From NCBI GenBank assembly GCA_964502815.1, contig CAZCXV010000002.1:22802-86801 (forward strand): a stretch of 64,000 nucleotides of DNA. Reading direction: 5' to 3'. This DNA comes from an uncultured Gammaproteobacteria bacterium. GTDB lineage: Bacteria; Patescibacteriota; Microgenomatia; UBA8517. Position numbers and translations under genes: made by a program. The stretch's first letter is position 1; each line of letters starts with the position of its first letter. This document shows positions 50,871-64,000 of this stretch, in pieces. Under the pieces are notes generated by a model, which was given only the letters and a program-made list of their open reading frames with translations, ran no database searches and was not told the origin of the DNA.

Positions 50871-51845
50871 TCAAAGATATTTTCTAATGTTCTCGTTGTG
50901 TTCTTCAAGAGTCCTTGCAAAGTGAATTTTTCCTTTGCTGTCATGAATGTAATACCAATATTCTGACTCTTCGGGGCTTATCGCAGCTTTTATGGAAGAT
51001 AGGCCAGGGGAGGCAATAGGGGAAGGGGGAAGCCCAGGGTGGGCATAGGTATTAAAAGGAGAATTGATGTCTATATCTGCCTTGGTTAACTTCTCCCAAT
51101 AATTATCCAGCTTTACAGTACTTTTCAATTTTGAACTGGCAACAGCGTACTGAACAGAAGCGTCAATTTGTAGTGGCCAACCTGTTTTCAGTCTTTTCAA
51201 AATTATGCCCGCAACAACTGGTTTTTCTTCCTCGCTACTTGTTTCTCTTTCCAAGAGGGAAGCGATAATCACTTGTTTTTGGGAAGGAGAAAAATCTTTA
51301 GTTTTCAAGTCAAAAGTTGAGGAAAGTTTAGTCACGACTTTTTGAGCAGAAGTGGTTTTTTCAAAAAGATAGGTATCTGGAAATAAATAGCCTTCTTTGT
51401 CTTTAGTCAAACTCAAAAATTCAACTTTAAAATCAAGTGCTTTTTGATCCTTTAGAGAAAAGGAAGTTACAAACTTATCTGCAATCTCTTCTCTTCTTAG
51501 TCCTTCAGGAATAGTCACCCATACTTGCCTAGGTCCTCTTAAAAGCTCAGAAATTACCTTAATCATCGACAGGGAAGGGGAGAGTTCATATTGACCTGGC
51601 TGGATCCTACCCTCAGTACCAGTTATTTTGGTATAAATTTTAAAAACCAGTGCATTTTGAATAAGTCCTTCCCTTTCCAGATTATTTGCAATCTTCATTG
51701 CCCCACTCCCCTTGGTTATTAAAAATTGTTTATTTTCAAGAGATTTTGAAACAGGTAGGATGTTTTGGTTAAACCAAAGATAACCGCCAAGTCCTGCGAA
51801 TACTAGCAAAATAAAAACAATTGGAATAAGTAGCCTTTTGATCAT
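50871..51845 (-). CDS. mltG: endolytic murein transglycosylase MltG (YceG family)
   Basis: N-terminal TM (MIKRLLIPIVFILLVFAGLGGYLWF), YceG-like body (ITKGSGAMKIANNLEREGLI, IPEGLRREEIADKF, DTYLF, conserved E in LLERETSSEEE). Start at internal Met; track ORF 50871..52016. Confidence 0.75.
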   Translation of the reverse strand: MIKRLLIPIVFILLVFAGLGGYLWFNQNILPVSKSLENKQFLITKGSGAMKIANNLEREGLIQNALVFKIYTKITGTEGRIQPGQYELSPSLSMIKVISELLRGPRQVWVTIPEGLRREEIADKFVTSFSLKDQKALDFKVEFLSLTKDKEGYLFPDTYLFEKTTSAQKVVTKLSSTFDLKTKDFSPSQKQVIIASLLERETSSEEEKPVVAGIILKRLKTGWPLQIDASVQYAVASSKLKSTVKLDNYWEKLTKADIDINSPFNTYAHPGLPPSPIASPGLSSIKAAISPEESEYWYYIHDSKGKIHFARTLEEHNENIRKYL

Positions 51846-51879: not shown

Positions 51880-52080
51880 TTAAACTTCCTCAAGGAGGGC
51901 TCTTCTGTAGGTCTTTTTGGTAGTGTCGTAAATATAGATACGCCTGCATTTGCAGTGAATCTTTTCAAAGCCTTTTTTGAAGTTTTCCTTTTTGCCTTTT
52001 GCAAGAGGCATTCCACAACCTACACACTGTCCCTGGGACAGAAGCCAAGCCTGGATTGGTGCGATTACATTTTTAAACAT
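51880..52080 (-). CDS. small zinc-ribbon protein (66 aa)
   Basis: CVGCG...HCKC cysteine pairs; sits between ruvX and mltG, where Bacillus has the small yrzB gene. Confidence 0.3.
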   Translation of the reverse strand: MFKNVIAPIQAWLLSQGQCVGCGMPLAKGKKENFKKGFEKIHCKCRRIYIYDTTKKTYRRALLEEV

Positions 52081-52090
52081 TTATTTATAC

Positions 52091-52483
52091 TTATTTGTAT
52101 TGTACCTGATCCAAATAACTTTGCAAGATAATGGCAGCTGCATAAGCGTCTTCCATATCTTTTCTCTTCTTTCTTTTGATGCCAGCCTCACGAGCCAGAA
52201 ATTGGGCGTCTAAGGAAGATAAAGTTTCATCGTGGAAAACTACCTCAATATTAAGTTTCTCTTTTAATTTCTTACCAAACTCAAGTGCATCTTTTTTTGA
52301 ATCTCTTTCACTCTTCCCCACCACTATTCTCTCAATATTGTGCGACTTAATTATTTTTGTCAGTTTTTCAATTAGTTTTTCTTCACTTGAATACCTGATA
52401 ACTTCCAAAGGTTCAGAAATTTTGGTCTCGGCAAGAGCCACCCCTACTTTGGCTTGCCCGAAGTCAATTCCTAATAGCCGCAT
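52091..52483 (-). CDS. ruvX: Holliday junction resolvase-like RuvX/YqgF
   Basis: MRLLGIDFGQAKVGVALAE (RNase H-like first strand with catalytic D), ...KDMEDAYAAAIILQSYLD C-terminus. Confidence 0.8.
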   Translation of the reverse strand: MRLLGIDFGQAKVGVALAETKISEPLEVIRYSSEEKLIEKLTKIIKSHNIERIVVGKSERDSKKDALEFGKKLKEKLNIEVVFHDETLSSLDAQFLAREAGIKRKKRKDMEDAYAAAIILQSYLDQVQYK

Positions 52484-53120
52484 TTGCCTCCTCTGGTGGA
52501 ACAATCCTAGCTTTTACTACAAGTCTTTTTGGTCTGGTTGGATCTCCTGGTGGGGTACAGGTAACAAGGGTTAAAAATGAATCGCTCAAGTTTTGTTCCA
52601 ATACTTGGGCATCAGTTGGAACTACTTCGGTCATACTTTCGATTCGATATTTATAGCTCACGCCGTCATATGCCACAAACACTTCATCATTCATTTTTAG
52701 CCTATCCAAAGTTGAAAAAATGGTAATGTAGCTTTTGGGGTCAAAAAAAGCCGGTAAAACTGAATGGCCAAAAACCACCGCATTGCCTCTCTTTCCTGGA
52801 ACTGCAGTTCCAGGGTATTGAATTAAATGTTCTGCCAAATCTTCTCCACCAATTGCTACAGCTGCATTTTCAATTTTTAACTTTGGGATAGAAATAGTAT
52901 AAAAAACAACATTATTCGAACCAAAATCACCTGGTTTGGATTCTGGCAACCAGTTTGACAATTTCGAATAATCAATACCGTTAGTTTTCGTAAAAGTCGC
53001 AAACTTCTGGTCTTTGGTTAAATTGTAGCTAACTATTGGATAAAACACCCAGACAATAATTCCTAGGCCAACTAGACCACTGGTAATTGCAATTAATCTT
53101 AGTATTAGTTTTGTCTTCAT
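52464..53120 (-). CDS. sortase family transpeptidase
   Basis: N-terminal TM, catalytic GHSV (His) and TLVTCTPPG (TLxTC Cys) motifs, conserved Arg in RLVVKARIV. Confidence 0.7.
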   Translation of the reverse strand: MKTKLILRLIAITSGLVGLGIIVWVFYPIVSYNLTKDQKFATFTKTNGIDYSKLSNWLPESKPGDFGSNNVVFYTISIPKLKIENAAVAIGGEDLAEHLIQYPGTAVPGKRGNAVVFGHSVLPAFFDPKSYITIFSTLDRLKMNDEVFVAYDGVSYKYRIESMTEVVPTDAQVLEQNLSDSFLTLVTCTPPGDPTRPKRLVVKARIVPPEEANAAIRN

Positions 53121-53187
53121 ATTTCTAAGTCTCTCACAATTTAGCAAATCTACAACACACTCCACAAGAGATATCCTTTAAAGAAGT

Positions 53188-56100
53188 TTAAGAGCTTGTG
53201 TTTTTCTCCCACAAAACATCCATATCGTCAATCATGTATGGCGGGTTGTAAGAAAATCTTTTAGTCGTTTGGAATTTATATGATTTTCCAACTTCAGATA
53301 TTCTTTTTTCTATAGCTTTTTCAAATCCCCCACCTGTTCTATTAGTTCTAATAGCTGTATTTTTTGAAACTAATATCTTATCAAAATCATTGTTATTGGC
53401 AAATTGCTCTACTTTTTTTATTATTCCCACAAATAATGCTTCTTCATCTACGGAATATAGGTATGTACTTGAAGGATTGAAGGAGACTGACAACAGTTTT
53501 TGACCGTTTTCTTCGTATGCATGCATCAATACCAAACCCTGACAGATTGCTGTTTCTGGGTCTTTAAACACCAACTGCAAATACTCGGGCATATTCCACA
53601 TCTCTTCATCACCTGAAACACACACTCCTCCTACCATTCTTGCATTTGCTGTTTCTTTTGTCTTTGAGATATAGCCATACAAAACTTCTCTTTGCTTTCC
53701 AGAAAGTGATTCAAACTTTTCAAGTTCATCTTGTATTGCAAGTCTTTCCAATTCAAAGATATCTATAAACCTCTGGGCAGTGTATGAAGCAAACTGTTCA
53801 TCATCATATTTTCCACTTCTAATATTTGCTTCTACATTTAATGCCTCTTGCAAATTTATTTCCCCCAAATGTGTCCCTGAATCTATTTCACCATTAGTTA
53901 TTAACTTATATGCAGCTAGTGTTTTTTCTCTTTGTGACCTTAACTGAGCATAAAAAGCTTTAGTGCGCGCCTTGGGAGATTCTGTTTTATCATTAGACAA
54001 GTAATCCACAAAACTCTCGTAGCGATCAACGATTCTATCGATAGATGGTCTCATTTCTTGCCATTGTATTTCCAATTCCTCCTTTTTCTTCCTTAAGCCA
54101 TTCCTATCTTCTTCAAGTTGTTTTATCTTTTCTTTTCTTTCATCAACAATCTTAATTGCACCTGCCTTACCTATATTCTTTTGAACTCGTGATATTTCAT
54201 TATCTATATTTGCAATATCATCTAATACCTGAGCTGCTGGAATTATTACATTAAAAAATGGAATTCTATTAGGAACTACTTCCATATTTTTCTTTATTTT
54301 TTCGGCGCTACTCAAAATTTTAACAACTTGTCGAGCGAAGCTATCTGATAATCCCAGCCTGTCAATTTGCAATCTATTGATTTCATCTTGTCTTTCAGAA
54401 CTGGATGCTTCTTCAGATAATTTCTTAAAATATTCCGGCATTGCATCTGCAATAGTTTTGTTTTCCCACGCAAATTGAACGATTCTCCTGTGTACCTCTT
54501 TTATCCTGTCTGCATAGAATGTTTCCAATTCACATAAAAGTGCATATTGAGGATTATTTGCAATTCCTACTCTATCTCTTGTTCCAGCAATATAATCTGC
54601 TATATCTTCAAACTCTGCAAACTCATACTTGATTATCAAACTCTTAATTACTTCTGGATCTAAACTTTTTGTTCCATATATTGAATCAGATAGAACTAAA
54701 AATAACTTTTCTTCAGCTGTTTTAACTTCCGCTAAATTAACACTTTGCAATCCACCGATTTCTACAATTTGAGCTAATGTTTCATCAAGGTTAACAATTA
54801 GTAATTCCATTGCTTTTTGTTTGTCATAATTAAAATCTTTCATTTGGTCAGCCACAGCATATATTGGAGTTTGAATATTTTCATGAACTTGCAAATTCAA
54901 TTGTTGTCCATCTTTAACCCTAATTTCTGCTTGAGATAGTAAATCTATTTCATATCTGGGATCAATTTTATATTTTGCCAAATCTTGTGATCTGTCTTCA
55001 CATTTTTCGTTTTCCGTGTAAGATGACCAACCACTAGCATTCTCTGCATAAACATGCCTGAGTAAGTCTTTATAAAACGGCTTTTTCCGTTCTTCTTCAG
55101 AGATTATTTCTTCACCAGTCATTTTCTCGGCCAAACCTTTAAGTTGAACCATAAACATCTTCTCACTTCCATTTTGTTTGGCTTGCTTGTAAGCTTCAAC
55201 AATACCAGGAGTTATAACCCTAAATTGTTTTGCAAATTCTATAATTAGACTTCGTTCGCTTTGATCTATTACTCCTGCATCTAAACATTCTTTATATCCT
55301 CTAATAATAGAGTCTGACTTTTGTCCAAACTCTCCAATTAACCTACCAAGAAATTTGACATCCTCAGTAGTTTCCATCAGTTCTCCATGGTTAGAAAAAA
55401 CGAAATTCCAAATCTCGGACATTTTTTCACCAAGTAATGATTTTGCGTATTTCGGTATCGAGAAAATTCCTTCTAGCTCGATTTCCGTATTTCTTATCGC
55501 ATTGGTAACTTCTTGAGAAGTCAAGTATCTCAATATTTCCAACTTCTGTTGGTTTTCGTAAATTTCAGCGGACAAAGATATTACTCTTTGTAGACGTATG
55601 AGCGCATCTTTTTGTCCAATGCGGTCTCCTATTTCACTTTCAACAACCATAAAAAGCAATTTGTCTCTGAGCAGTTTTTGAAAATAGAAGCTTTTAATAT
55701 CAACCCAACCTTTTAGTTTAGGTCTACCATCTCGCATAGCATCCATGGTTTTTTCAATTTCCAATAATTTATTGTCGGTCTCAAACAAAGAAGCCGCCTC
55801 TTGCTGCGAAATTGTTCCCCTTGAAATTAAGAGATCTGCAAGTGTCTGAGTCCTTAAAGTTTCTGCAGCCAAGGATAATAATTCAGGATTTCTGTCCTCT
55901 ACATTAGTTAATATTGATATTGCAAATTCTTCTGCTTTTCTTGAACCAAGTGATACTATTCTATCGCTACCCCCAAGTATCCAACCTTCCAACACCTTTC
56001 TGTTGTTTTCAAGTCCTGGATATTTTGTGATAGCAGCGTCAATAATTTGCTGCCAGTCTGATCGTTTTGAGAGTTCATTTAAGGCGGTATTGACTGCTGA

Positions 56101-57510
56101 AACATTATATTTATGTGAACTTTCATATTCGCCATAAGAAGCTATCAAGACCAAATTTCTTATTGTCTCTGGAGTTGGATATTTAGCTAGCAATTTTATT
56201 TCTCCACCAACAGTAGAACCTGCATGTAGTGAAGACTTTAGTGCATCTTGGTATATTTTTTCGTCAATTTTTTCCAATTGATCATCTCCAAATATAGCAT
56301 TTACTTCAGAGTTTGCCTGCAAAATTTCCCAAAAACTCAAATTTGCAGGACTTTTAACAATATGTTCTGCAGATATTTCCTCTATTTTTACCGTTTCGGG
56401 ATTACTACTTACTCTCGACCCCGGCCTACCCAGTCTTTTATATTTAGTTCCAGTTGCTGTTGCTATTATTTGTTCCCGGTCAAAATCTGAAAGTATAAGG
56501 TTTATGCCCTCCGATTCATAGGCTATTTTTTTGATGTCTTCGACAAACAAACTTCCCACCATTCTTCTTAATACCGAGATATCAGATTTTTTAGTAACAA
56601 GGGTTGTCCATTCCAAGACTAAATAGCCGTTCCACAATAACGAATTTTCTCCCAAACTTTGTCTTAATTCATTAAGTTCCCTCTCTGCTTCCAAATCATT
56701 TCTCAATACTATCTGGCTAGCCATTTTTAGGGAACTAACTATTTCTTCTTCACGGCCTTGATAGATTTTATATTCTTTACACCACTTAGACAATAAAGGT
56801 ACAACACATTTGTCTATATATTCCTCCCTAACTTGAGGGATAATATTAGGACTATTTTCTAGTTCTGTCATATATTGTAAATATTGACCCCGAACTTGTT
56901 GCACTTCTCTAACAACTTCATTTTCAATGACTTCTTCTTGAAATCTCCTAATTGGAGTGCCTATATTTTGATATCTAGCAGCTTCTTCACGCAATTTTTT
57001 CCTCTCAATTCTCAAAGCATCAATTTGATTTTCCAAAACCAAAGCTCCAGGCTGTCCTTCTAGTCCCTTTTCCCATATTTCTTCGTTCAAAGAATTTATT
57101 TTTTCCGATATTCGGTTTGCTTGATAATTTCTCTTTGCCTCCCAGGCTTCAACCAATTCAGCTGTTTTAGAACCTGTCTCTAGTGCCTTTTCCACTGCAT
57201 CTCCTCTAAGATTATTTTTATCGATTTTCAATAAATACTCTGCTGACTGCTGCAACAGGTTGATTGAAGGTAAATCCATTGTTTCCACTTCTTCTAAATC
57301 TAATCTTGATTGAGACAAAGCAACTAATCTTCCTATCCTATCTTGGCTGGGAAACACCTTTGACCTTATCTCTGCGAGTCTTTGTCTTAATGGATGCTCT
57401 TCTGAAAAAGTTTTCAATTCGTTCTCGGGCTTAAGAACAGAGTCGGTGTTATTCTCTGACATGTTTAATTTTACAATACATTTGAAGCTATCTCTCAGCA
57501 GTGACCTCAA
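53188..57510 (-). CDS. giant hypothetical protein (1440 aa, cytoplasmic, coiled-coil/alpha-helical repeat-like)
   Basis: Uninterrupted 4.3-kb ORF, no signal peptide/TM, no Walker motifs found by eye. E/K-rich predicted coiled-coil stretches and HEAT-like helical repeats. Start overlaps the upstream 760-aa gene stop by 23 nt. Confidence 0.5.
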   Translation of the reverse strand: MRSLLRDSFKCIVKLNMSENNTDSVLKPENELKTFSEEHPLRQRLAEIRSKVFPSQDRIGRLVALSQSRLDLEEVETMDLPSINLLQQSAEYLLKIDKNNLRGDAVEKALETGSKTAELVEAWEAKRNYQANRISEKINSLNEEIWEKGLEGQPGALVLENQIDALRIERKKLREEAARYQNIGTPIRRFQEEVIENEVVREVQQVRGQYLQYMTELENSPNIIPQVREEYIDKCVVPLLSKWCKEYKIYQGREEEIVSSLKMASQIVLRNDLEAERELNELRQSLGENSLLWNGYLVLEWTTLVTKKSDISVLRRMVGSLFVEDIKKIAYESEGINLILSDFDREQIIATATGTKYKRLGRPGSRVSSNPETVKIEEISAEHIVKSPANLSFWEILQANSEVNAIFGDDQLEKIDEKIYQDALKSSLHAGSTVGGEIKLLAKYPTPETIRNLVLIASYGEYESSHKYNVSAVNTALNELSKRSDWQQIIDAAITKYPGLENNRKVLEGWILGGSDRIVSLGSRKAEEFAISILTNVEDRNPELLSLAAETLRTQTLADLLISRGTISQQEAASLFETDNKLLEIEKTMDAMRDGRPKLKGWVDIKSFYFQKLLRDKLLFMVVESEIGDRIGQKDALIRLQRVISLSAEIYENQQKLEILRYLTSQEVTNAIRNTEIELEGIFSIPKYAKSLLGEKMSEIWNFVFSNHGELMETTEDVKFLGRLIGEFGQKSDSIIRGYKECLDAGVIDQSERSLIIEFAKQFRVITPGIVEAYKQAKQNGSEKMFMVQLKGLAEKMTGEEIISEEERKKPFYKDLLRHVYAENASGWSSYTENEKCEDRSQDLAKYKIDPRYEIDLLSQAEIRVKDGQQLNLQVHENIQTPIYAVADQMKDFNYDKQKAMELLIVNLDETLAQIVEIGGLQSVNLAEVKTAEEKLFLVLSDSIYGTKSLDPEVIKSLIIKYEFAEFEDIADYIAGTRDRVGIANNPQYALLCELETFYADRIKEVHRRIVQFAWENKTIADAMPEYFKKLSEEASSSERQDEINRLQIDRLGLSDSFARQVVKILSSAEKIKKNMEVVPNRIPFFNVIIPAAQVLDDIANIDNEISRVQKNIGKAGAIKIVDERKEKIKQLEEDRNGLRKKKEELEIQWQEMRPSIDRIVDRYESFVDYLSNDKTESPKARTKAFYAQLRSQREKTLAAYKLITNGEIDSGTHLGEINLQEALNVEANIRSGKYDDEQFASYTAQRFIDIFELERLAIQDELEKFESLSGKQREVLYGYISKTKETANARMVGGVCVSGDEEMWNMPEYLQLVFKDPETAICQGLVLMHAYEENGQKLLSVSFNPSSTYLYSVDEEALFVGIIKKVEQFANNNDFDKILVSKNTAIRTNRTGGGFEKAIEKRISEVGKSYKFQTTKRFSYNPPYMIDDMDVLWEKNTSS

Positions 57511-59719
57511 TATTAATATTTTTGGTCACTCTAGGTAAGGCTCCAAGACGTCCAGGAAGTTTAGGAGTTGGCTTAATGACTACTCTCGAGAAGCTGGCAA
57601 TAGAACTTAAGTAATCTTGGGTGAACTTTGGCGACTTGCCAGTAATCTTTTTGGCAACTTCATCAGGGTTAATTGAAGGCAGTAAATTTGCAGAAACTTT
57701 CATTTCAACTTCAATTATTCCACCTTTGTTACTTTTGACTGTAAATTCGTTTTCAATTTGTTCATCCCGTAAGACAAAGCCATCTGGCACACTTTCCGCA
57801 AGTAAAGACTTTGATAGCTTAAGCAAATCCTCTTTGGACACTACTGGGGCAGAAGCGTTGCCTTTTAGGGTTAATTTTAAATCCTTAGCTTCATCCCCAA
57901 CTTTGTGGTTGAAGTCCTTTTGGTCAGTGGCGACAGAAGTTGCATCACCAATAATAATTTGACTGTCTTCCAAAGTTTCGTTTATGGCTGATTTACCTTT
58001 TTCTTCCAGCTCCTTGGTTACTTTTTCTTCCAAGCTTTCCCTGTCATCAGCAGAAACTGCCTGAATGTCTCTACTTGAGCCCCCACTAAAGGCACTGTCG
58101 GCAACACCGTCCACTTCGCTCTTTGGGTAATTTCCCACCTTAAATGATTCTCCTTTTGCCAAATTTGATTCCGATCCAATTGCTTCGGCAATAGCTTCAA
58201 CAGTTGTCATCCCGGGGCTGGTAGGCGAAGTTGCCGCCGATATAGACGCGGATTGGAGAGGGATAAATTTCAAGTTACTACTACTCAAAAGAACTGTTGT
58301 TGCAGTTAATTTTACAGGAGTTGCAGTCCCGTTTCTAACTTGGACCTTTCCTTTGGCTTTTTCACCAACAGTTTTGGTACCAGTAGCTATTACCTCGCCT
58401 TGGGCAGACACTTCTTTAGTAACCATTTTTCCAGTTAAAGTGTTTGAACCAGTTGCAGACCCAGATCCAGTATTAATAAAAACGTTTTGTGTCTTTGAAA
58501 TCTCTTTTGGTGAAACATAGATAATAACCTCGGCCTTTGGCAAAAACCACCAGGCGGCAAATAGGCCAACAAATAAAATAACTAAGGCAAGAGCTCCAAA
58601 TTTAAAAGGTTTGTCATTAGCCATTAAACTATCCAAATGAGTTGGCCCACTCATGGCTTTAAGAGCCACTTTCGGTAATTTTAATTCAGACTTATTTTTA
58701 AGCTTTCTCAATAATCTTCCTAGAAAAACCAGGGGGGTAAACTTTTTTACTTGGTGAACAGATTCTTCTTTGTGAATGGCAAACTCTGAAGGTTGATTAT
58801 GACTATATAAATCTTTGGTTTGTGGTCTATCCTCAAAATTATCTCCAATATCTTGACCAAGAGAAAAACCCAGCTCACGAGGATCCACTGTTTGGCTTTC
58901 AAGATTGGCTGCCTCTTTAGGAATACTTTCAGTTTCCTTAAATGTTGGCAAACTTTGACCAATCTGTTTTTTAACCAATCCTTGTACGCTTTGAGCTCCG
59001 GCAATTTCAGATGCTCCTGCAAGACTGACCGCAACTATTTTTTCTTCTGGATCAATCATTTCAATTTTTGGCGTATGCAGAAACTTCACTTTTTCATTAC
59101 CTGTCCAATCTGCTTGCGAAAGCGCATCTCTACCAAACTCCAATTCACTAATTTTTCCATCGTAGACAATAAATCTTGACGGATAATGCTCTTCAACCGG
59201 AAATCTGGTTAATCCTTCGGTTACATCTTCGACCAAAGACAAACTTCTGGCAACACTGACATTGCCGACTAAATTCCCAAGCTTAAACAAAGAGACATCT
59301 AAATATTCCTTTCCAAAACCAATTAATATTCCAGTTAAAGGCGAGCCCTCTTGACTTTTGATATAGTAGGCAAGGGCTTCGGGCAAAACTACAAAACCTG
59401 AAGGTTCGAGAGAAAGTTTGGAACAAACAACTCTAATCTTTTCTAGGTATTCAGGCTTAATGTTGCCCTCTGCCACCCAGGAAGAAGGTATGCCAAAAAC
59501 AACTTTAGACGGTTCTTCTTCGCTTTCAGGAAAATCATTGATTGCGTCAGACAAGGAAGTGTCAACTGACGTAACTAAGTCTTCATCACTTTCCCAATAA
59601 ACAGGTGTTGAGGCAGCAATTATCTTGGCAATTTTTCCATCCTCGCCCTCTTGGGTTGTCCAAATTGAAGCTTGCACCCAGCCTGTTTCAATTGTTAGTG
59701 TCCAGTAATATTCGGGCAT
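57488..59719 (-). CDS. bitopic membrane protein: degenerate actin-like (FtsA/PilM-like) cytoplasmic N-domain, 1 TM, long Ser/Thr/Gly-rich extracytoplasmic C-domain
   Basis: N-terminal LTIETGWVQASIW (phosphate-1-like) and TGILIGFGKEYLDVSLFKLGNLVGNV (phosphate-2-like, DxGxG degenerated) suggest an ASKHA fold. TM at FGALALVILFVGLFAAWWFL; C-terminal 370 aa low-complexity S/T/G-rich, no LPXTG. Confidence 0.5.
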   Translation of the reverse strand: MPEYYWTLTIETGWVQASIWTTQEGEDGKIAKIIAASTPVYWESDEDLVTSVDTSLSDAINDFPESEEEPSKVVFGIPSSWVAEGNIKPEYLEKIRVVCSKLSLEPSGFVVLPEALAYYIKSQEGSPLTGILIGFGKEYLDVSLFKLGNLVGNVSVARSLSLVEDVTEGLTRFPVEEHYPSRFIVYDGKISELEFGRDALSQADWTGNEKVKFLHTPKIEMIDPEEKIVAVSLAGASEIAGAQSVQGLVKKQIGQSLPTFKETESIPKEAANLESQTVDPRELGFSLGQDIGDNFEDRPQTKDLYSHNQPSEFAIHKEESVHQVKKFTPLVFLGRLLRKLKNKSELKLPKVALKAMSGPTHLDSLMANDKPFKFGALALVILFVGLFAAWWFLPKAEVIIYVSPKEISKTQNVFINTGSGSATGSNTLTGKMVTKEVSAQGEVIATGTKTVGEKAKGKVQVRNGTATPVKLTATTVLLSSSNLKFIPLQSASISAATSPTSPGMTTVEAIAEAIGSESNLAKGESFKVGNYPKSEVDGVADSAFSGGSSRDIQAVSADDRESLEEKVTKELEEKGKSAINETLEDSQIIIGDATSVATDQKDFNHKVGDEAKDLKLTLKGNASAPVVSKEDLLKLSKSLLAESVPDGFVLRDEQIENEFTVKSNKGGIIEVEMKVSANLLPSINPDEVAKKITGKSPKFTQDYLSSIASFSRVVIKPTPKLPGRLGALPRVTKNINIEVTAER

Positions 59720-61463
59720 ATATTCTTCTGATGCCAGCCGAGGCTGACTCTTCTTTATATATCTTAACACGCCCGTTAATTTCTTTCAGGTTAGTGACAT
59801 GCGGACCACCACAGACTTCTTTTGAAAAAAATTCACCTCGAGGGTCACCTATTGTATAGACTTTTACTTTTTCTCCATACCTTTCACCAAAAAAGGCTAC
59901 TGCACCCTCTTTAATTGCTTCAGCTAAGGTTTTTACTTCGTAAGACACAGGTAGTTCTCTTTTGATTTCTTGGTTAACTAAATCCTCAATTTCTTTTAGC
60001 TGTTCAAGCGTTAACTTTTCAGAGTGGGTAAAATCAAACCTTAACCTTTCAGCTGTGATATTACTGCCTTTTTGAGAAACATGATTTCCAAGTACCCTTC
60101 TTAAAGCTGCATGAATCAGATGTGTTGCAGTATGAAGACTTGTTGTTTCTTTGGAGTGATCTGCAAGTCCCCCTTTAAAAGTTCCGCTAGATGCAGTCCT
60201 AGATATATCTTGGTGTTTGGAAAATTCCTTTTTAAATTCTTCAACATCAACTTCCTGGCCTTTCTCTTGGAAAAGTTCTATCGTTAATTCCAAAGGAAAA
60301 CCATAAGTTTGATATAGATCAAAAGCGATCTTGCCATCAATCTTGGCAATTTTTTCTACCTCTTTCAGGCCTTTTGAAAGCGTGACTAAGAACTTTTTCT
60401 CTTCACTTTTGATGGTATTTATAATCTCAGCTTGCTTCTCAATGAGTTGTTTATAATCCTGGCCGTAAATAGAAATGACTGCCTTGGCTATTGGGCTTAA
60501 AAACTCCTCATGAACTCCAAGTTTTTTTCCAAACCTAGCAGCTCGTCTTATTAATCTTCTTAAGATATAACCTCTTTCTTTGTTTGAAGGAAAAATACCC
60601 TCAGAAATTACAAAAACGGATGCTCTAACGTGATCGGCAACAATCCGGTGCTCTTTTTTGTTGTCCACATATGTCGTATTTGTAACTTCAGCAACCTTTT
60701 TTAGAATATCTCCCCAAACAGAATCAACTTGATAATTGTCGTCAAAACCAGAAAAAACTGCGCAAGTTCTTTCAACTCCCATGCCGGTATCAACATTTTT
60801 TTGCTTTAAAGGTTCAAATTTTCCTTCTGTAGTTTTGTTGTATTGCATAAAAACATTATTCCAAATTTCAAAAAACCTTCCACAGCCGTCTCCAGGTTTG
60901 CAACCTGATCCATGGGGAACTCCAGTTGCATCGTAAAAGATTTCTGAGTCCGGGCCACAAGGCCCGGTGTGGCCTGCAGGTCCCCACCAGTTGTCTTTTT
61001 TTGGAAAAAAGTAGATTCTTTCATCAGGGATACCCAATTTCTTCCAAATATTTGCTGATTCTTCATCTTTAGGGGCATCATTATCCCCTTCAAAACAAGT
61101 CACCCAAAGCTTATTTGGATCTGCACCTAATTCACCAACCAAAAACTCATATGACCAAGTTAGAGACTCTTTTTTCCAATAGTCTCCCAAAGACCAATTA
61201 CCTAGCATTTCAAAGAAAGTGTTGTGACTGGTGTCGCCCACCTCATCAATATCGTCAGTCCTGAGGCAAAGTTGGTTATCAACAATCCTTTTTCCCCCAG
61301 GATGAACTTCTCCTAAAAGATATGGAACCAGGGGATGCATGCCTGCAGTAGTAAACAAGACTGTAGGGTCATTTTCTGGCACCAAAGAAGCAGAAGGGAT
61401 AATGGTGTGTCCCTTTTTTTTAAAATAATTAAGATATTTTTCAATTAATTCACGTCTATTCAT
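59688..61463 (-). CDS. alaS: alanine--tRNA ligase, short form lacking the C-Ala domain
   Basis: Class II core FTTAGMHPLVPY (motif 2 region), FFEMLGNWS, editing-domain HTATHLIHAAL...CGGPHV; 591 aa ending right after the editing domain. Confidence 0.9.
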   Translation of the reverse strand: MNRRELIEKYLNYFKKKGHTIIPSASLVPENDPTVLFTTAGMHPLVPYLLGEVHPGGKRIVDNQLCLRTDDIDEVGDTSHNTFFEMLGNWSLGDYWKKESLTWSYEFLVGELGADPNKLWVTCFEGDNDAPKDEESANIWKKLGIPDERIYFFPKKDNWWGPAGHTGPCGPDSEIFYDATGVPHGSGCKPGDGCGRFFEIWNNVFMQYNKTTEGKFEPLKQKNVDTGMGVERTCAVFSGFDDNYQVDSVWGDILKKVAEVTNTTYVDNKKEHRIVADHVRASVFVISEGIFPSNKERGYILRRLIRRAARFGKKLGVHEEFLSPIAKAVISIYGQDYKQLIEKQAEIINTIKSEEKKFLVTLSKGLKEVEKIAKIDGKIAFDLYQTYGFPLELTIELFQEKGQEVDVEEFKKEFSKHQDISRTASSGTFKGGLADHSKETTSLHTATHLIHAALRRVLGNHVSQKGSNITAERLRFDFTHSEKLTLEQLKEIEDLVNQEIKRELPVSYEVKTLAEAIKEGAVAFFGERYGEKVKVYTIGDPRGEFFSKEVCGGPHVTNLKEINGRVKIYKEESASAGIRRIYARILLDTNN

Positions 61464-62012: not shown

Positions 62013-62642
62013 TTAGTTTTTCAATTGTACGGTAATAACCCGCACAATGGTAGTTTCTTTTCCACTTCTTGACCTTGCAACTATCTCAATTTTTTGGGTG
62101 TCTTGATTTACCTCAATTTCGGTTGTAAATTTGCCGTCATCTGTCACCAATGCCTGCTGATTATTTATTTTAATTGTTGCTCCAGGATCAGTTTTTCCCT
62201 CCACCTGCAAATTACCAATATTAACAACCTGAGCTTCACCAGGTTTTATTACTTCTAACTTTGGAGAACTTGTAAAGCCAATATATTGCATTACCAAATA
62301 GCCTAGAATTGCCAGTAAAATAATTGTTGTCCCGGTTATAAAAGTCAATCTTGGCGTCCAAACAAATTTATTTTCTACATCGGGCTTTGGGGTAAGTGAA
62401 AGTTTCGTTGGTGGATAATCTCTTCTCAAAAAAGCCAGAGCTTGGTCAGAACTTAACTCCAGAGAATCGGCAACTGATCTTACAAAACCCCTGACTACAG
62501 GGTACTCGGGCAGAGTTTGCCAATCTTCACTTTCCAAGGCCTGCAAAAAATCTTTTTTAATTTTTGTCAATCCTTCCAAATGCGCTTTGGAATATGATTT
62601 TTTCATTCTTGCCTCTTTAAGAAGCTGACCTATTGTTACCAT
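62013..62642 (-). CDS. rodZ: RodZ-like protein (N-terminal HTH, TM, C-terminal beta domain)
   Basis: HTH MVTIGQLLKEARMKKSYSKAHLEGLTKIKKDFLQALE, TM LTFITGTTIILLAILGYLVM, C-terminal extracytoplasmic domain. Confidence 0.5.
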   Translation of the reverse strand: MVTIGQLLKEARMKKSYSKAHLEGLTKIKKDFLQALESEDWQTLPEYPVVRGFVRSVADSLELSSDQALAFLRRDYPPTKLSLTPKPDVENKFVWTPRLTFITGTTIILLAILGYLVMQYIGFTSSPKLEVIKPGEAQVVNIGNLQVEGKTDPGATIKINNQQALVTDDGKFTTEIEVNQDTQKIEIVARSRSGKETTIVRVITVQLKN

Positions 62643-62650
62643 AATTCTTT

Positions 62651-64000
62651 TTAACCAGAAGACTGACCAACCAGATAGTTCTGAGCATTTTCCATAATTA
62701 CATCTCTTGGCTTAGCGCCATCTGATGGCCCAACAATCCCCGCCGCTTCCAGTTGATCAATAAGTCTGGCGGCTCTAGCGTAACCAACAGAAAGTCTTCT
62801 TTGAAGGAGGGATGCCGAGGCCTTGCCGCTTTGGGCAACGATTCTGACTGCCTCACCAAAACTTTCGTCGGCATTACCTTCCACGCCAGTTACCGGATTA
62901 CTGCCAGGTTTTGGCATAGAAACCACCTCTTCGGTGTATTGTGGATTTACCCCCTGGTTTTTAATAAACGAGATCAAATTAATAACATCACGATCTGAGA
63001 TATATGCTCCCTGAATACGCGTTGGCTTGGCAGCTTCTGGAGGAAGATATAACATATCCCCTTTACCCAAGAGTTTTTCGGCTCCTTGGGTATCAAGAAT
63101 AACTCTTGAGTCAATTAAAGATGCAACCGCAAAAGCAATACGCGAGGGGATATTTGCCTTAATGAGACCCGTAATTACATTAACCGAAGGCCTTTGAGTA
63201 GCAAGAACCATATGAATTCCCGTTGCCCGAGACATCTGGGCAATTCTAGTTATCGCATCTTCCACTTCAACTGGAGAAAGCAGCATTATATCTGCAAGTT
63301 CGTCTATAACAACCACTATATAGGGCATTGCCTGAAAGCCACTCATCTCATTATAAGAGGCTATATTTCTTGCCCCCACTTGAGCAAACAACTTATATCT
63401 TCTGTCCATTTCGGCCATTACCCAACGAAGAGCTGAAATAACTTTCTCGGCTTCAACAATGACGGGGGTCAAAAGGTGAGGAATGTTATTGTAGCCAGTT
63501 AGCTCCACCCTTTTTGGATCCACCAAAATTAACTTTACCTCAGAAGGCGAGGCTCGAAATAGTAGAGATGACAGGAAAGTATTTATGGCAACCGACTTAC
63601 CAGATCCAGTTTGGCCGGCAATAAGGACATGTGGCATTTTAGCAAGGTCGCCCACAACCGGCTTGCCACCAACATCAAGCCCTAAAGCAACAGATAATTT
63701 GGAAGGACTGTTGTGCATCGCTTCTGACTCCAAGATTTTCTTTAGAGGAACAAACTCTGGAGCCCGGTTGGGAAGTTCAATACCCACTAAGCTTCTGCCT
63801 GGAATTGGGGCTTCGATACGAATCGTTCCCGTAGAAGCCGCCAAGGCAAGCGCCATATCCCGGTCGAGACCGGTAATTTTTGAGAGTTTGGTTCCTAAAG
63901 CTACTTCCAAGGCGTATTGGGTAACTGCAGGACCAAGATTTACTTCAACTACGCGGGCTGTAACGCCAAAAGATTCCAAGGTCTGCTCAATAATAGCCGC
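62651..64000 (-). CDS. ftsK: DNA translocase FtsK/SpoIIIE (C-terminal motor and gamma domains; N-terminus beyond window end)
   Basis: Walker A AGQTGSGKSV, Walker B VVVIDELAD, and a C-terminal winged-helix gamma-like region (ESFGEAVRIVAQSGKASASLLQRRLSVGYARAARLIDQLE); ORF continues past position 64000. Confidence 0.85.
   Translation of the reverse strand, partial: AAIIEQTLESFGVTARVVEVNLGPAVTQYALEVALGTKLSKITGLDRDMALALAASTGTIRIEAPIPGRSLVGIELPNRAPEFVPLKKILESEAMHNSPSKLSVALGLDVGGKPVVGDLAKMPHVLIAGQTGSGKSVAINTFLSSLLFRASPSEVKLILVDPKRVELTGYNNIPHLLTPVIVEAEKVISALRWVMAEMDRRYKLFAQVGARNIASYNEMSGFQAMPYIVVVIDELADIMLLSPVEVEDAITRIAQMSRATGIHMVLATQRPSVNVITGLIKANIPSRIAFAVASLIDSRVILDTQGAEKLLGKGDMLYLPPEAAKPTRIQGAYISDRDVINLISFIKNQGVNPQYTEEVVSMPKPGSNPVTGVEGNADESFGEAVRIVAQSGKASASLLQRRLSVGYARAARLIDQLEAAGIVGPSDGAKPRDVIMENAQNYLVGQSSG

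Follow-up and report, generated by a model that had tools for sequence, protein, structure and literature searches.

INTRODUCTION

The actin-like ASKHA fold is shared by PilM, FtsA, and PPX/GppA, of which PilM and FtsA work at the cytoplasmic side of the membrane in division or envelope processes, and proteins of the Baseplate J family are known from the phages P2 (gpJ), Mu (gp47), and T4 (gp6). The sortases of Gram-positive bacteria (classes A to F) have a Sortase domain, an N-terminal membrane anchor, the histidine of a GHS motif, and the cysteine of a TLxTC motif; they go with LPXTG-type substrates and with pilins or surface adhesins as partners. Among GNAT acetyltransferases, large helical partners are found in the eukaryotic NatA and NatB, where the helical scaffolds Naa15 and Naa25 accompany Naa10 and Naa20, and these complexes, with NatD (Naa40), are the closest known to the giant protein described below. 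Large bacterial GNAT fusions are represented by Pat/PatZ and TmcA, and many GNAT-fold domains are noncatalytic.

Here, we analyze a locus between alaS and ruvX in a 64-kb stretch of DNA, referred to as the window, in which an actin-like membrane protein, a giant cytoplasmic protein, and a sortase are encoded. A preliminary description had taken these genes for a three-gene insertion of 7.3 kb forming one functional unit. We consider it likely that two unrelated components make up the locus, namely, a resident pair encoding the membrane protein and the sortase and a single-gene insertion, the giant gene, found only in the lineage of the window. The literature yielded no paper on either the Baseplate_J-like/sortase pair or the giant family.

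RESULTS

Gene calls and flanking genes

Between alaS and ruvX, three codirectional ORFs were called on the minus strand, as are all features discussed here, in agreement with the preliminary description. Their longest forms comprise 760 aa (57488-59770), 1,440 aa (53188-57510), and 233 aa (52464-53165), flanked by the longest forms of alaS (59688-61463) and ruvX (52091-52504). The 760- and 1,440-aa forms thus do exist as ORFs, but these lengths, as well as the 23-nt overlap of the first two ORFs that had been taken as a sign of tight coupling, are a product of admitting GTG and TTG starts. ATG starts, derived from public gene calls and alignment with relatives, yield a membrane protein of 743 aa (ATG at 59719) and a giant protein of 1,424 aa (ATG at 57462), separated by a gap of 25 nt instead of an overlap. 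The sortase probably has 218 aa (ATG at 53120) and follows the giant gene after 67 nt.

The upstream anchor of the block is a short, 591-aa form of alaS (59688..61463) with class II catalytic and tRNA_SAD domains (Pfam tRNA-synt_2c, 4.9e-136; tRNA_SAD, 1.5e-13), the position of which is unchanged in all related loci. There is a 32-nt overlap between its 3' end and the start of the membrane protein gene at the ATG. The downstream anchor is ruvX, encoding a YqgF-type resolvase/nuclease (52091..52483) identified by Pfam RuvX (2.4e-31) and synteny, which is overlapped by the 3' end of the sortase gene over 20 nt. It is followed by a conserved 66-aa ORF (51880-52080) without a Pfam family and by mltG, encoding a YceG-like endolytic transglycosylase (50871..51845; Pfam YceG, 1.2e-75; gene calls in L001, L003, and L004). 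A scan for promoters and terminators gave counts not above shuffled expectation, with no terminators between the genes.

The bitopic membrane protein

The first gene (57488..59719) encodes a 743-aa protein. Its family is Woesebacteria wide, accounts for 536 homologues in the set of scored candidates, and is annotated in some sources as "baseplate J/gp47 family protein." The AlphaFold model of the protein (pLDDT 81) starts with a cytoplasmic domain (residues 1 to 246; 58982..59719) that is modeled at a pLDDT of ~90 or higher and adopts the two-lobed RNase-H-like ASKHA fold, matching many ASKHA structures in Foldseek with a probability of 1.00 and E values of 1e-7 to 1e-5. The PDB matches include PPX/GppA (6pc0, 1.1e-7), FtsA (7q6i, 2.9e-7), and PilM (5eoy, 8.5e-7), which together with the single transmembrane (TM) helix bears out the bitopic, actin-like character proposed earlier. 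The domain lies on the cytoplasmic membrane face in a division/envelope setting, as do PilM and FtsA, but it differs from the known proteins in being only ~246 residues long, in lacking a Pfam match to FtsA or PilM_2 at E<=0.1 (with the same tool, a true PilM in locus L099 scores 3.4e-25), and in its covalent connection, through a TM helix within the same protein, to a domain outside the cell. Furthermore, the strands that would carry the phosphate motifs look diverged, reading I-E-x-[GDN]-W and L-G-x-G-x-E in a family alignment (A2), i.e., IE-x-G and LG-x-G instead of D-x-G and D-x-G-G-G. As judged by eye and without structural superposition, the Asp residues of the phosphate-1 (DxG[ST]) and phosphate-2 (DxGGGT) motifs thus appear to be replaced, which makes ATP hydrolysis doubtful.

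A disordered linker (residues 249 to 366) leads to the TM helix (residues 369 to 392; 58544..58615), recognized both in a hydropathy scan and as a helix in the model, and on to an extracellular beta-rich domain (residues 395 to 743; 57491..58537). The latter appears Baseplate_J-like from family matches and structural comparison. Pfam Baseplate_J (PF04865) is below threshold on the window protein itself (13.9 bits versus a cutoff of 21.1). Of 30 members of the family, 28 match it at E<=0.01, the best at 9.2e-8, and Foldseek aligns the ectodomain with a baseplate chain of the myophage XM1 (7kh1_A5, 1.6e-5). A profile search of the PDB with the family gave no matches. In contrast to the Baseplate J proteins of phages, the domain is extracellular and membrane tethered, and its gene is a chromosomal resident that is kept vertically across a bacterial class, invariably with a sortase gene after it. 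No genes of a phage or contractile system lie nearby: in ~75 genomes, its neighbors are alaS, the sortase gene, ruvX, and mltG, without baseplate, tail, or sheath genes. A PHROG search gave no match. Near the C terminus, the sequence LPGRLG..LPR is conserved. It was considered as a sorting signal and rejected, as it is not LPXTG, is not followed by a TM segment or basic tail, and is folded into the modeled domain.

The sortase

The third gene (52464..53120) encodes a membrane-anchored sortase with an N-terminal TM helix, identified earlier as such and confirmed by Pfam Sortase (PF04203; 88.6 bits versus a cutoff of 26.6) and NCBIfam TIGR01076 sortase_fam (51.5 versus 39.35). It shares with the Gram-positive enzymes the Sortase domain, the membrane anchor, the GHS histidine (His119, invariant in 79 Woesebacteria sortases), and the TLVTC cysteine (residues 184 to 188; Cys188), and the Arg residues downstream of TLVTC, in PTRPKRLVVKAR, are candidates for the catalytic Arg. 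A sequence search of the PDB retrieved class C sortases among others, with E values no better than 4.5e-10. However, none of the NCBIfam class cutoffs was reached, and the scores remain far below them for class C (52.2 versus 160), E (52.1 versus 160), D (43.9 versus 165), and F (25.4 versus 166).

The enzyme also differs from Gram-positive sortases in its surroundings. In the place of pilins or surface adhesins, it has the Baseplate_J-like membrane protein as its fixed partner, and no LPXTG-type signal (motif, hydrophobic segment, and basic tail) was detected by regular expression and hydropathy on ORFs of >=80 aa in the 64-kb window. The sole LPxTG in a real gene of the window is an internal chance match in rpoB, and neither large protein of the locus carries the motif, as had been observed before. 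Since a substrate was not found in the window, it is the adjacency of the two genes that suggests a functional link of the sortase to the membrane protein.

The giant protein and its family

The giant ORF (53188..57462) is certainly coding, with 1,424 codons in 35% GC DNA and homologues at E = 1e-276. Consistent with the preliminary description, neither a TM segment nor a signal peptide was detected in the protein, and neither large protein of the locus had an assigned function. For both of them, searches of Pfam, NCBIfam, PHROGs, PADLOC, and PDB sequences gave nothing significant, the subthreshold Baseplate_J match of the membrane protein being the sole exception. A word-indexed search with the 1,440-aa ORF returned 0 matches, which was a false negative, and even a profile query gave only short fragments. 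In an exhaustive HMMER scan, by contrast, 438 homologous clusters were retrieved at E<=1e-3, of which 135 reached E<=1e-30. The top homologues are 44 to 55% identical and 1,100 to 1,800 aa long, some being collinear over their full length, and the named members of this uncharacterized family come from Patescibacteria plus one Chlamydiae-labeled MAG. The 90% cluster to which the window protein itself belongs has an 80-aa fragment as its representative.

In the predicted structure (pLDDT 82.8; pTM 0.70), more than 85% of the protein is a helical body that structurally matches only generic helical repeats (designed repeats and HEAT-like proteins), not TPR scaffolds. The stretch best conserved in the top homologues is a central helical module (residues ~650 to 1053; 54304..55515) without a Pfam match, in which an alignment (A5) shows the invariant polar patterns C..DR..D, PRY..D, GTxDR, NxxYALLCE, and DRIKE. 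Next to it, the window copy has a helical/coiled-coil insert of its own of ~86 aa (54046..54303). In the phmmer alignments the query jumps from 1053 to 1140 there while the targets advance by ~10 residues, and the insert, modeled as long helices, is the block of lowest conservation (0.09).

The C-terminal domain (model residues 1026 to 1195, corresponding to 1250 to 1419 of the 1,424-aa form; 53206..53715) is predicted to have the GNAT topology β1-α1-α2-β2-β3-β4-α3-β5-α4-β6-β7. The earlier statement that the protein has no recognizable enzymatic motif holds at the sequence level, where no Pfam or NCBIfam GNAT family matched the window protein, any of 5 homologues, or any of 22 C-terminal domains, but not at the level of predicted structure. 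Foldseek matches of this domain to GNATs are weak (E of 1.5e-2 or worse), and a PDB profile search with it found nothing significant. The Q/R-x-x-G-x-G/A loop that binds the pyrophosphate of acetyl-CoA in GNATs (motif A, between β4 and α3) is absent. Instead, the β4-α3 loop reads NPSSTYLYSVDEE, is nearly invariant in the family, and contains no Gly, and the domain may therefore depend on a different donor or lack catalytic activity. Compared with known GNATs, the family lacks sequence similarity to any Pfam GNAT family, has a conserved NPSSTY loop in place of the CoA loop, and carries an invariant Cys in the α1-α2 loop. Compared with NatA and NatB, it would join scaffold and GNAT fold in a single polypeptide of 1,424 aa, with a body that resembles generic repeats instead of a TPR scaffold.

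The predicted GNAT fold at the C terminus suggests an acyltransferase-type enzyme or a pseudoenzyme rather than a cytoskeletal scaffold. We regard the second option, in which the protein serves only as a structural or regulatory scaffold and its GNAT-like domain binds without catalysis, as the less probable. It would account for the missing CoA motif, the lack of a GNAT match at the sequence level, and the preponderance of the helical body, in a fold for which noncatalytic examples abound. On the other hand, the GNAT-fold domain is the most conserved part across the whole giant family, and the invariant polar residues of the family cluster here and in the central module. Those of the GNAT-fold domain (K, R, C, D, N, R-x-NR, and the NPSST loop) are located at the loops that form the donor and acceptor sites in GNATs, a pattern that fits an active site better than a binding surface.

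Synteny in relatives

A contig scan with the membrane protein as a single query gave no matches, and an alignment-based query did recover the relatives. About 75 Woesebacteria/Microgenomates genomes have in common a block of ftsK, a rodZ-like gene, alaS, the membrane protein gene, the sortase gene, ruvX, mltG, and rpoB, with the sortase start usually 0 to 150 nt after the membrane gene. Each of the Woesebacteria genomes examined has the membrane protein and the sortase in the alaS-ruvX interval, and hence 2.9 kb of the supposed 7.3-kb insertion is resident sequence. The pair is essentially universal in Woesebacteria, both genes being class-wide residents. In the two closest relatives, which have membrane proteins 59 to 60% and sortases 79 to 80% identical to those of the window, the sortase gene directly follows the membrane gene after a spacer of 15 to 68 nt, and the giant gene is absent. 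The giant gene is missing from this junction in ~75 related genomes and is confined there to the genome of the window itself (L001 and L002, with DNA identical to the window). At other junctions of the block, other lineages carry unrelated insertions of their own, such as an SDR-like gene in L077, a 333-aa gene in L051, and inserts of 2 to 3.5 kb in L038, L078, and L064.

The homologues of the giant gene tell the same story, as their 438 clusters represent stand-alone genes in housekeeping contexts. In 38 metagenome and 2 genome loci, they are surrounded by varied housekeeping genes (SecA, CTP synthase, BipA, and RF), often on the opposite strand, and they never adjoin a sortase or the membrane protein in the 38 metagenome loci. 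Over 493 kb of such loci, no Baseplate_J-like protein was found, and a single sortase was encoded, at a distance of 6.7 kb and on the opposite strand. A ruvX near the homologue in L099 was considered as shared context and judged coincidental, the rest of that neighborhood (Na/Ca exchanger, DsbA, and PilM/PilN) being unrelated.

These data speak to the proposal that the three genes form one envelope or cytoskeletal system, in which the membrane protein binds a giant cytoplasmic scaffold through its actin-like domain and works with the sortase. The genes are codirectional and closely spaced without a terminator-like site between them, the giant protein, largely helical and in places resembling coiled coils, could be a scaffold, and recruitment might explain why the insertion lies precisely between two functionally linked genes. 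Yet the absence of the giant gene from the junction even in the closest genomes, the separate lives of its homologues, and the unrelated insertions in the same block of other lineages make this proposal very unlikely, and synteny largely refutes it. Of the single functional unit, only the tightly linked and conserved membrane protein and sortase survive, plausibly as one envelope unit. Likewise, an envelope scaffold associated with a sortase is plausible for this pair but does not extend to the giant protein with its predicted GNAT fold. More generally, tight spacing is weak evidence for shared function in compact CPR genomes. Having landed inside an operon, the giant gene is probably cotranscribed with its neighbors; this would follow from the insertion site and is not evidence of shared function.

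As to its source, the giant gene is mildly atypical in composition (GC, 0.349 versus a window mean of 0.385 [SD, 0.032]; GC3, 0.263 versus 0.316 [SD, 0.041]), a deviation of ~1.1 to 1.3 SD that is not diagnostic, and it may have been translocated from elsewhere in the same genome. That a mobile element or phage carried it in as cargo, or that it encodes a toxin/effector ending in a GNAT toxin domain of the TacT, AtaT, or GmvT type, seems very unlikely, since its lineage-specific insertion, slightly lower GC, a Foldseek match to GmvT (9ils) at rank 45, and a single 38-residue match on a 2-kb viral contig are set against the absence of an integrase, transposase, or other mobility gene and of flanking repeats or target site duplications beyond short chance matches, of any match in 50,697 phage and 72,556 plasmid records, of a signal peptide or TM segment, and of a PADLOC match or conserved small neighbor as an antitoxin or immunity candidate, as well as against a C-terminal domain that is conserved rather than polymorphic and homologues located among housekeeping genes.

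DISCUSSION

The composite reading that we favor separates two proposals. The resident pair lies within a compact division and cell wall neighborhood (ftsK, rodZ-like, alaS, the pair, ruvX, and mltG). Its first gene is predicted to encode a cytoplasmic ASKHA domain, a disordered linker, one TM helix, and an extracellular Baseplate_J-like domain, and its second, a membrane-anchored sortase. Plausibly, the two act together at the envelope, where the bitopic protein would span the membrane as a scaffold or help to position the attachment of surface proteins by the sortase.

The giant gene, in turn, appears to be a single-gene insertion confined to the lineage of the window, from a widespread unnamed family that occurs mostly in Patescibacteria. 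Its product is modeled as a very large alpha-helical body, in part solenoid-like, which bears the conserved central module and the C-terminal GNAT-fold domain. The body might bind a macromolecular partner or substrate onto which the GNAT-fold domain transfers an acyl group, a scheme reminiscent of the helical auxiliary subunits that present substrates to GNAT catalytic subunits, albeit with a noncanonical donor site.

A bolder version seems rather unlikely to us. It would posit a Woesebacteria-specific trans-envelope machine, in which cytoplasmic actin-like control governs the placing or timing of a non-LPXTG sortase, and separately a giant, Patescibacteria-type fused "scaffold plus GNAT" enzyme with a non-CoA donor site that acts on a large substrate, e.g., ribosomes or nascent chains. 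If true, the machine, made up of the ASKHA-TM-Baseplate_J protein and its obligate sortase partner, could put surface structures in place, for instance, organelles with which an epibiont attaches.

In summary, our analysis keeps a spurious "three-gene system" from being catalogued and reveals that the conserved gene block tolerates unrelated insertions at several junctions. The giant family, with members of 1,100 to 1,800 aa, mostly from Patescibacteria and without a Pfam model, may now be described, on the basis of the predicted structure, as a helical scaffold with a divergent GNAT fold, and its unusual conserved donor-site loop offers experimenters a defined domain and specific residues. 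Finally, the ASKHA-TM-Baseplate_J protein and the unclassified sortase next to it are candidates for the organization of surface attachment in the ultrasmall, wall-bearing Woesebacteria.

Organization and conservation of the alaS-mltG region

Read in minus-strand order, the region begins within the window with ftsK (62651-63979), followed by a "RodZ-like" gene (62013-62642) encoding HTH_25, one transmembrane (TM) segment, and a Glucodextran_B/Big_6 Ig-like ectodomain, by an 80-aa ORF, and by alaS (59688-61463; 591 aa, catalytic domain plus tRNA_SAD). Downstream of alaS, on the same strand, lie the 760-aa ORF of the membrane protein, the 1440-aa ORF of the giant protein (53188-57510), the sortase gene, and ruvX, and then a 66-aa ORF (51880-52080) without any Pfam family, mltG, and rpoB. 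The window sequence matches a stretch of a 107-kb contig from a groundwater metagenome (L001) without differences, and a locus from a second sample (L002) has the same DNA over 9.2 kb. A gene is called at the position of the 66-aa ORF in L001 and in the loci of the two closest relatives (L003 and L004). The alaS product looks short compared with a full-length bacterial AlaRS; called alaS genes are 591 to 602 aa in these three loci, and tblastn matches at other Woesebacteria loci are of similar extent.

Public gene calls and alignment with relatives place the start of the membrane protein at the ATG at 59719 (743 aa), that of the giant protein at the ATG at 57462 (1,424 aa), and probably that of the sortase at the ATG at 53120 (218 aa). 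With these starts, 25 nt separate the membrane protein gene from the giant gene, and 67 nt separate the latter from the sortase gene. The 23-nt overlap previously noted between the first two ORFs therefore stems from the choice of the longest possible ORFs and is not real.

In the two closest relatives, the order is alaS, membrane protein, sortase, ruvX, 66-aa ORF, and mltG, with the membrane protein gene followed directly by the sortase gene; the encoded proteins are 59 to 60% (membrane protein) and 79 to 80% (sortase) identical to those of the window. An alignment-based scan with one genome per species yielded 75 further loci, all from Woesebacteria or Microgenomates. By tblastn with the window proteins, the order ftsK, rodZ-like, alaS, membrane protein, sortase, ruvX, mltG, rpoB recurs in essentially all 75, and the sortase gene starts 0 to 150 nt past the membrane protein gene in all but one. 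Hence, the two genes are an ancestral, class-wide pair. The giant gene is found at their junction only in L001 and L002, both from the window's own genome, and is missing there from the two closest relatives and the 75 further loci. Since the pair is class-wide, the lineage-specific gain is limited to the 4.3-kb giant gene. The preliminary description, which saw a 7.3-kb insertion of three genes, thus made a real observation but mis-scoped it, as 2.9 kb of that stretch is the ancestral pair. Its proposal of one functional unit does not hold for the giant gene, which is absent from the junction in relatives, but remains plausible for the membrane protein and the sortase, whose conserved adjacency suggests that they are functionally linked. 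This strict adjacency gives the sortase a fixed partner, adding to the work of Méheust et al. With ftsK and the RodZ-like gene upstream and mltG downstream, the conserved block resembles a division or cell wall neighborhood.

The giant gene shows only a mild compositional shift, its GC and GC3 lying about 1.1 to 1.3 standard deviations under the window mean. No flanking repeats were seen around it, and searches of phage and plasmid collections gave no matches to its product. Other Woesebacteria lineages carry genes of their own at junctions of the block: an SDR-like gene lies at the junction of the giant gene, between the membrane protein and sortase genes, in L077 (12140-12850), a 333-aa gene sits between the sortase gene and ruvX in L051 (4591-5589), and 2 to 3.5 kb of extra genes separate ruvX from mltG in L038 (13322-16906), L078 (10656-14159), and L064 (13270-15537). 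The block tolerates unrelated lineage-specific gene gains at other junctions too.

Membrane protein and sortase

An AlphaFold model built from the family alignment of the membrane protein has a pLDDT of 81. Residues 1 to 246 adopt an ASKHA, actin-like fold (Foldseek matches to PPX/GppA, FtsA, and PilM at 1e-7 to 1e-6), bearing out the actin-like domain proposed earlier; in a by-eye reading of the alignment, the nucleotide-binding motifs look diverged. Residues 249 to 366 are disordered, the TM helix spans residues 369 to 392, and residues 395 to 743 form a beta-rich ectodomain, for which 28 of 30 family members match Pfam Baseplate_J and which in Foldseek also resembles a myophage baseplate chain. 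A hydropathy scan agrees with the TM content first described, one segment in the membrane protein and none in the giant protein.

The sortase has its His motif, its TLVTC motif, and an N-terminal anchor, and fits none of the NCBIfam classes. As previously reported, both large proteins lack LPXTG; likewise, no LPXTG-type signal, and no sortase substrate, was identified on any window ORF of 80 aa or more. At a locus of another Patescibacteria genome (L124:1-3300), a sortase adjoins a different large protein, unannotated and 1,713 aa long, the C terminus of which is missing from the locus.

The giant protein family

Sequence libraries returned nothing for the giant protein, and a word-indexed homologue search gave zero matches or, with a profile query, only short fragments of less than 451 aa. 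For a protein of this length, such a negative is not valid evidence of orphan status, and it proved false: an exhaustive HMMER scan with residues 241 to 1440 recovered 438 clusters at E<=1e-3, of which 275 reach E<=1e-10 and 135 reach E<=1e-30. The best matches are 1,100 to 1,800 aa long and 44 to 55% identical; the 90% cluster to which the protein belongs has an 80-aa fragment as its representative. Where source names are given, members are "hypothetical protein" of Patescibacteria or Taylorbacteria. One distant member, a 1,819-aa protein of the P0224 cluster, was deposited with a 'Chlamydiae bacterium' MAG as its source, which may reflect either mis-binning or presence of the family outside Patescibacteria.

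Full-length relatives are collinear, with two highly conserved modules at about residues 650 to 1053 and 1140 to 1424, the central one carrying many invariant polar residues. Between these modules, a helical stretch of about 86 aa (54046-54303) is inserted in the window copy alone; homologues have some 10 residues there. The window copy is also missing about 100 residues, common in homologues, just before the central module (around residue 650 of the 1,424-aa form). Genomic contexts are mixed across 40 loci, 38 from metagenomes and two from genomes; the neighbors include SecA, CTP synthase, BipA, and release factors, among others, and the giant gene is often the sole gene on its strand. Profile searches of 493 kb of these loci detected a single sortase, which lies 6.7 kb off on the opposite strand; they yielded no Baseplate_J-like protein. 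Two homologues are split, one into no fewer than two pieces, with lengths of 642 and 297 aa (L082:6988-10894, a Taylorbacteria MAG), and one into seven consecutive ORFs (L083:1648-5425, an ENA contig); such splits mark either pseudogenes or sequencing errors that shift the frame.

An AlphaFold2 model from a 53-sequence alignment (pLDDT 82.8, pTM 0.70) is all-helical over residues 1 to 1023, with only generic helical-repeat matches. Model residues 1026 to 1195 form an alpha/beta domain of topology b1-a1-a2-b2-b3-b4-a3-b5-a4-b6-b7, for which 49 of the top 50 Foldseek hits in the PDB are GNAT acetyltransferases. Their E values are weak (1.5e-2 or worse), yet the probability of the top hits is about 1, so that the predicted fold can be regarded as solid. 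Sequence-level membership is not, and the protein sequence gave no GNAT matches in Pfam, NCBIfam, or PDB. At the b4-a3 junction, an almost invariant NPSSTYLYSVDEE stands in place of the acetyl-CoA loop Q/R-x-x-G-x-G/A. Other invariant residues (K, R, the Cys of GGVCV, W, F..N, and IRTNRTGG at b5-a4) are placed where GNATs form their donor and acceptor sites. We tentatively view the protein as a divergent predicted acyltransferase carried by a very large helical scaffold, giving catalysis slightly less than an even chance; a noncatalytic pseudoenzyme is the less likely alternative.

In conclusion, nothing here is a described system; the sortase, the ASKHA and Baseplate_J domains, and the GNAT fold each diverge from known examples of their kind. 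Two leads are left: a class-universal, uncharacterized envelope gene pair, and a large unnamed protein family, found mainly in Patescibacteria, for which a structural model now offers a starting point.
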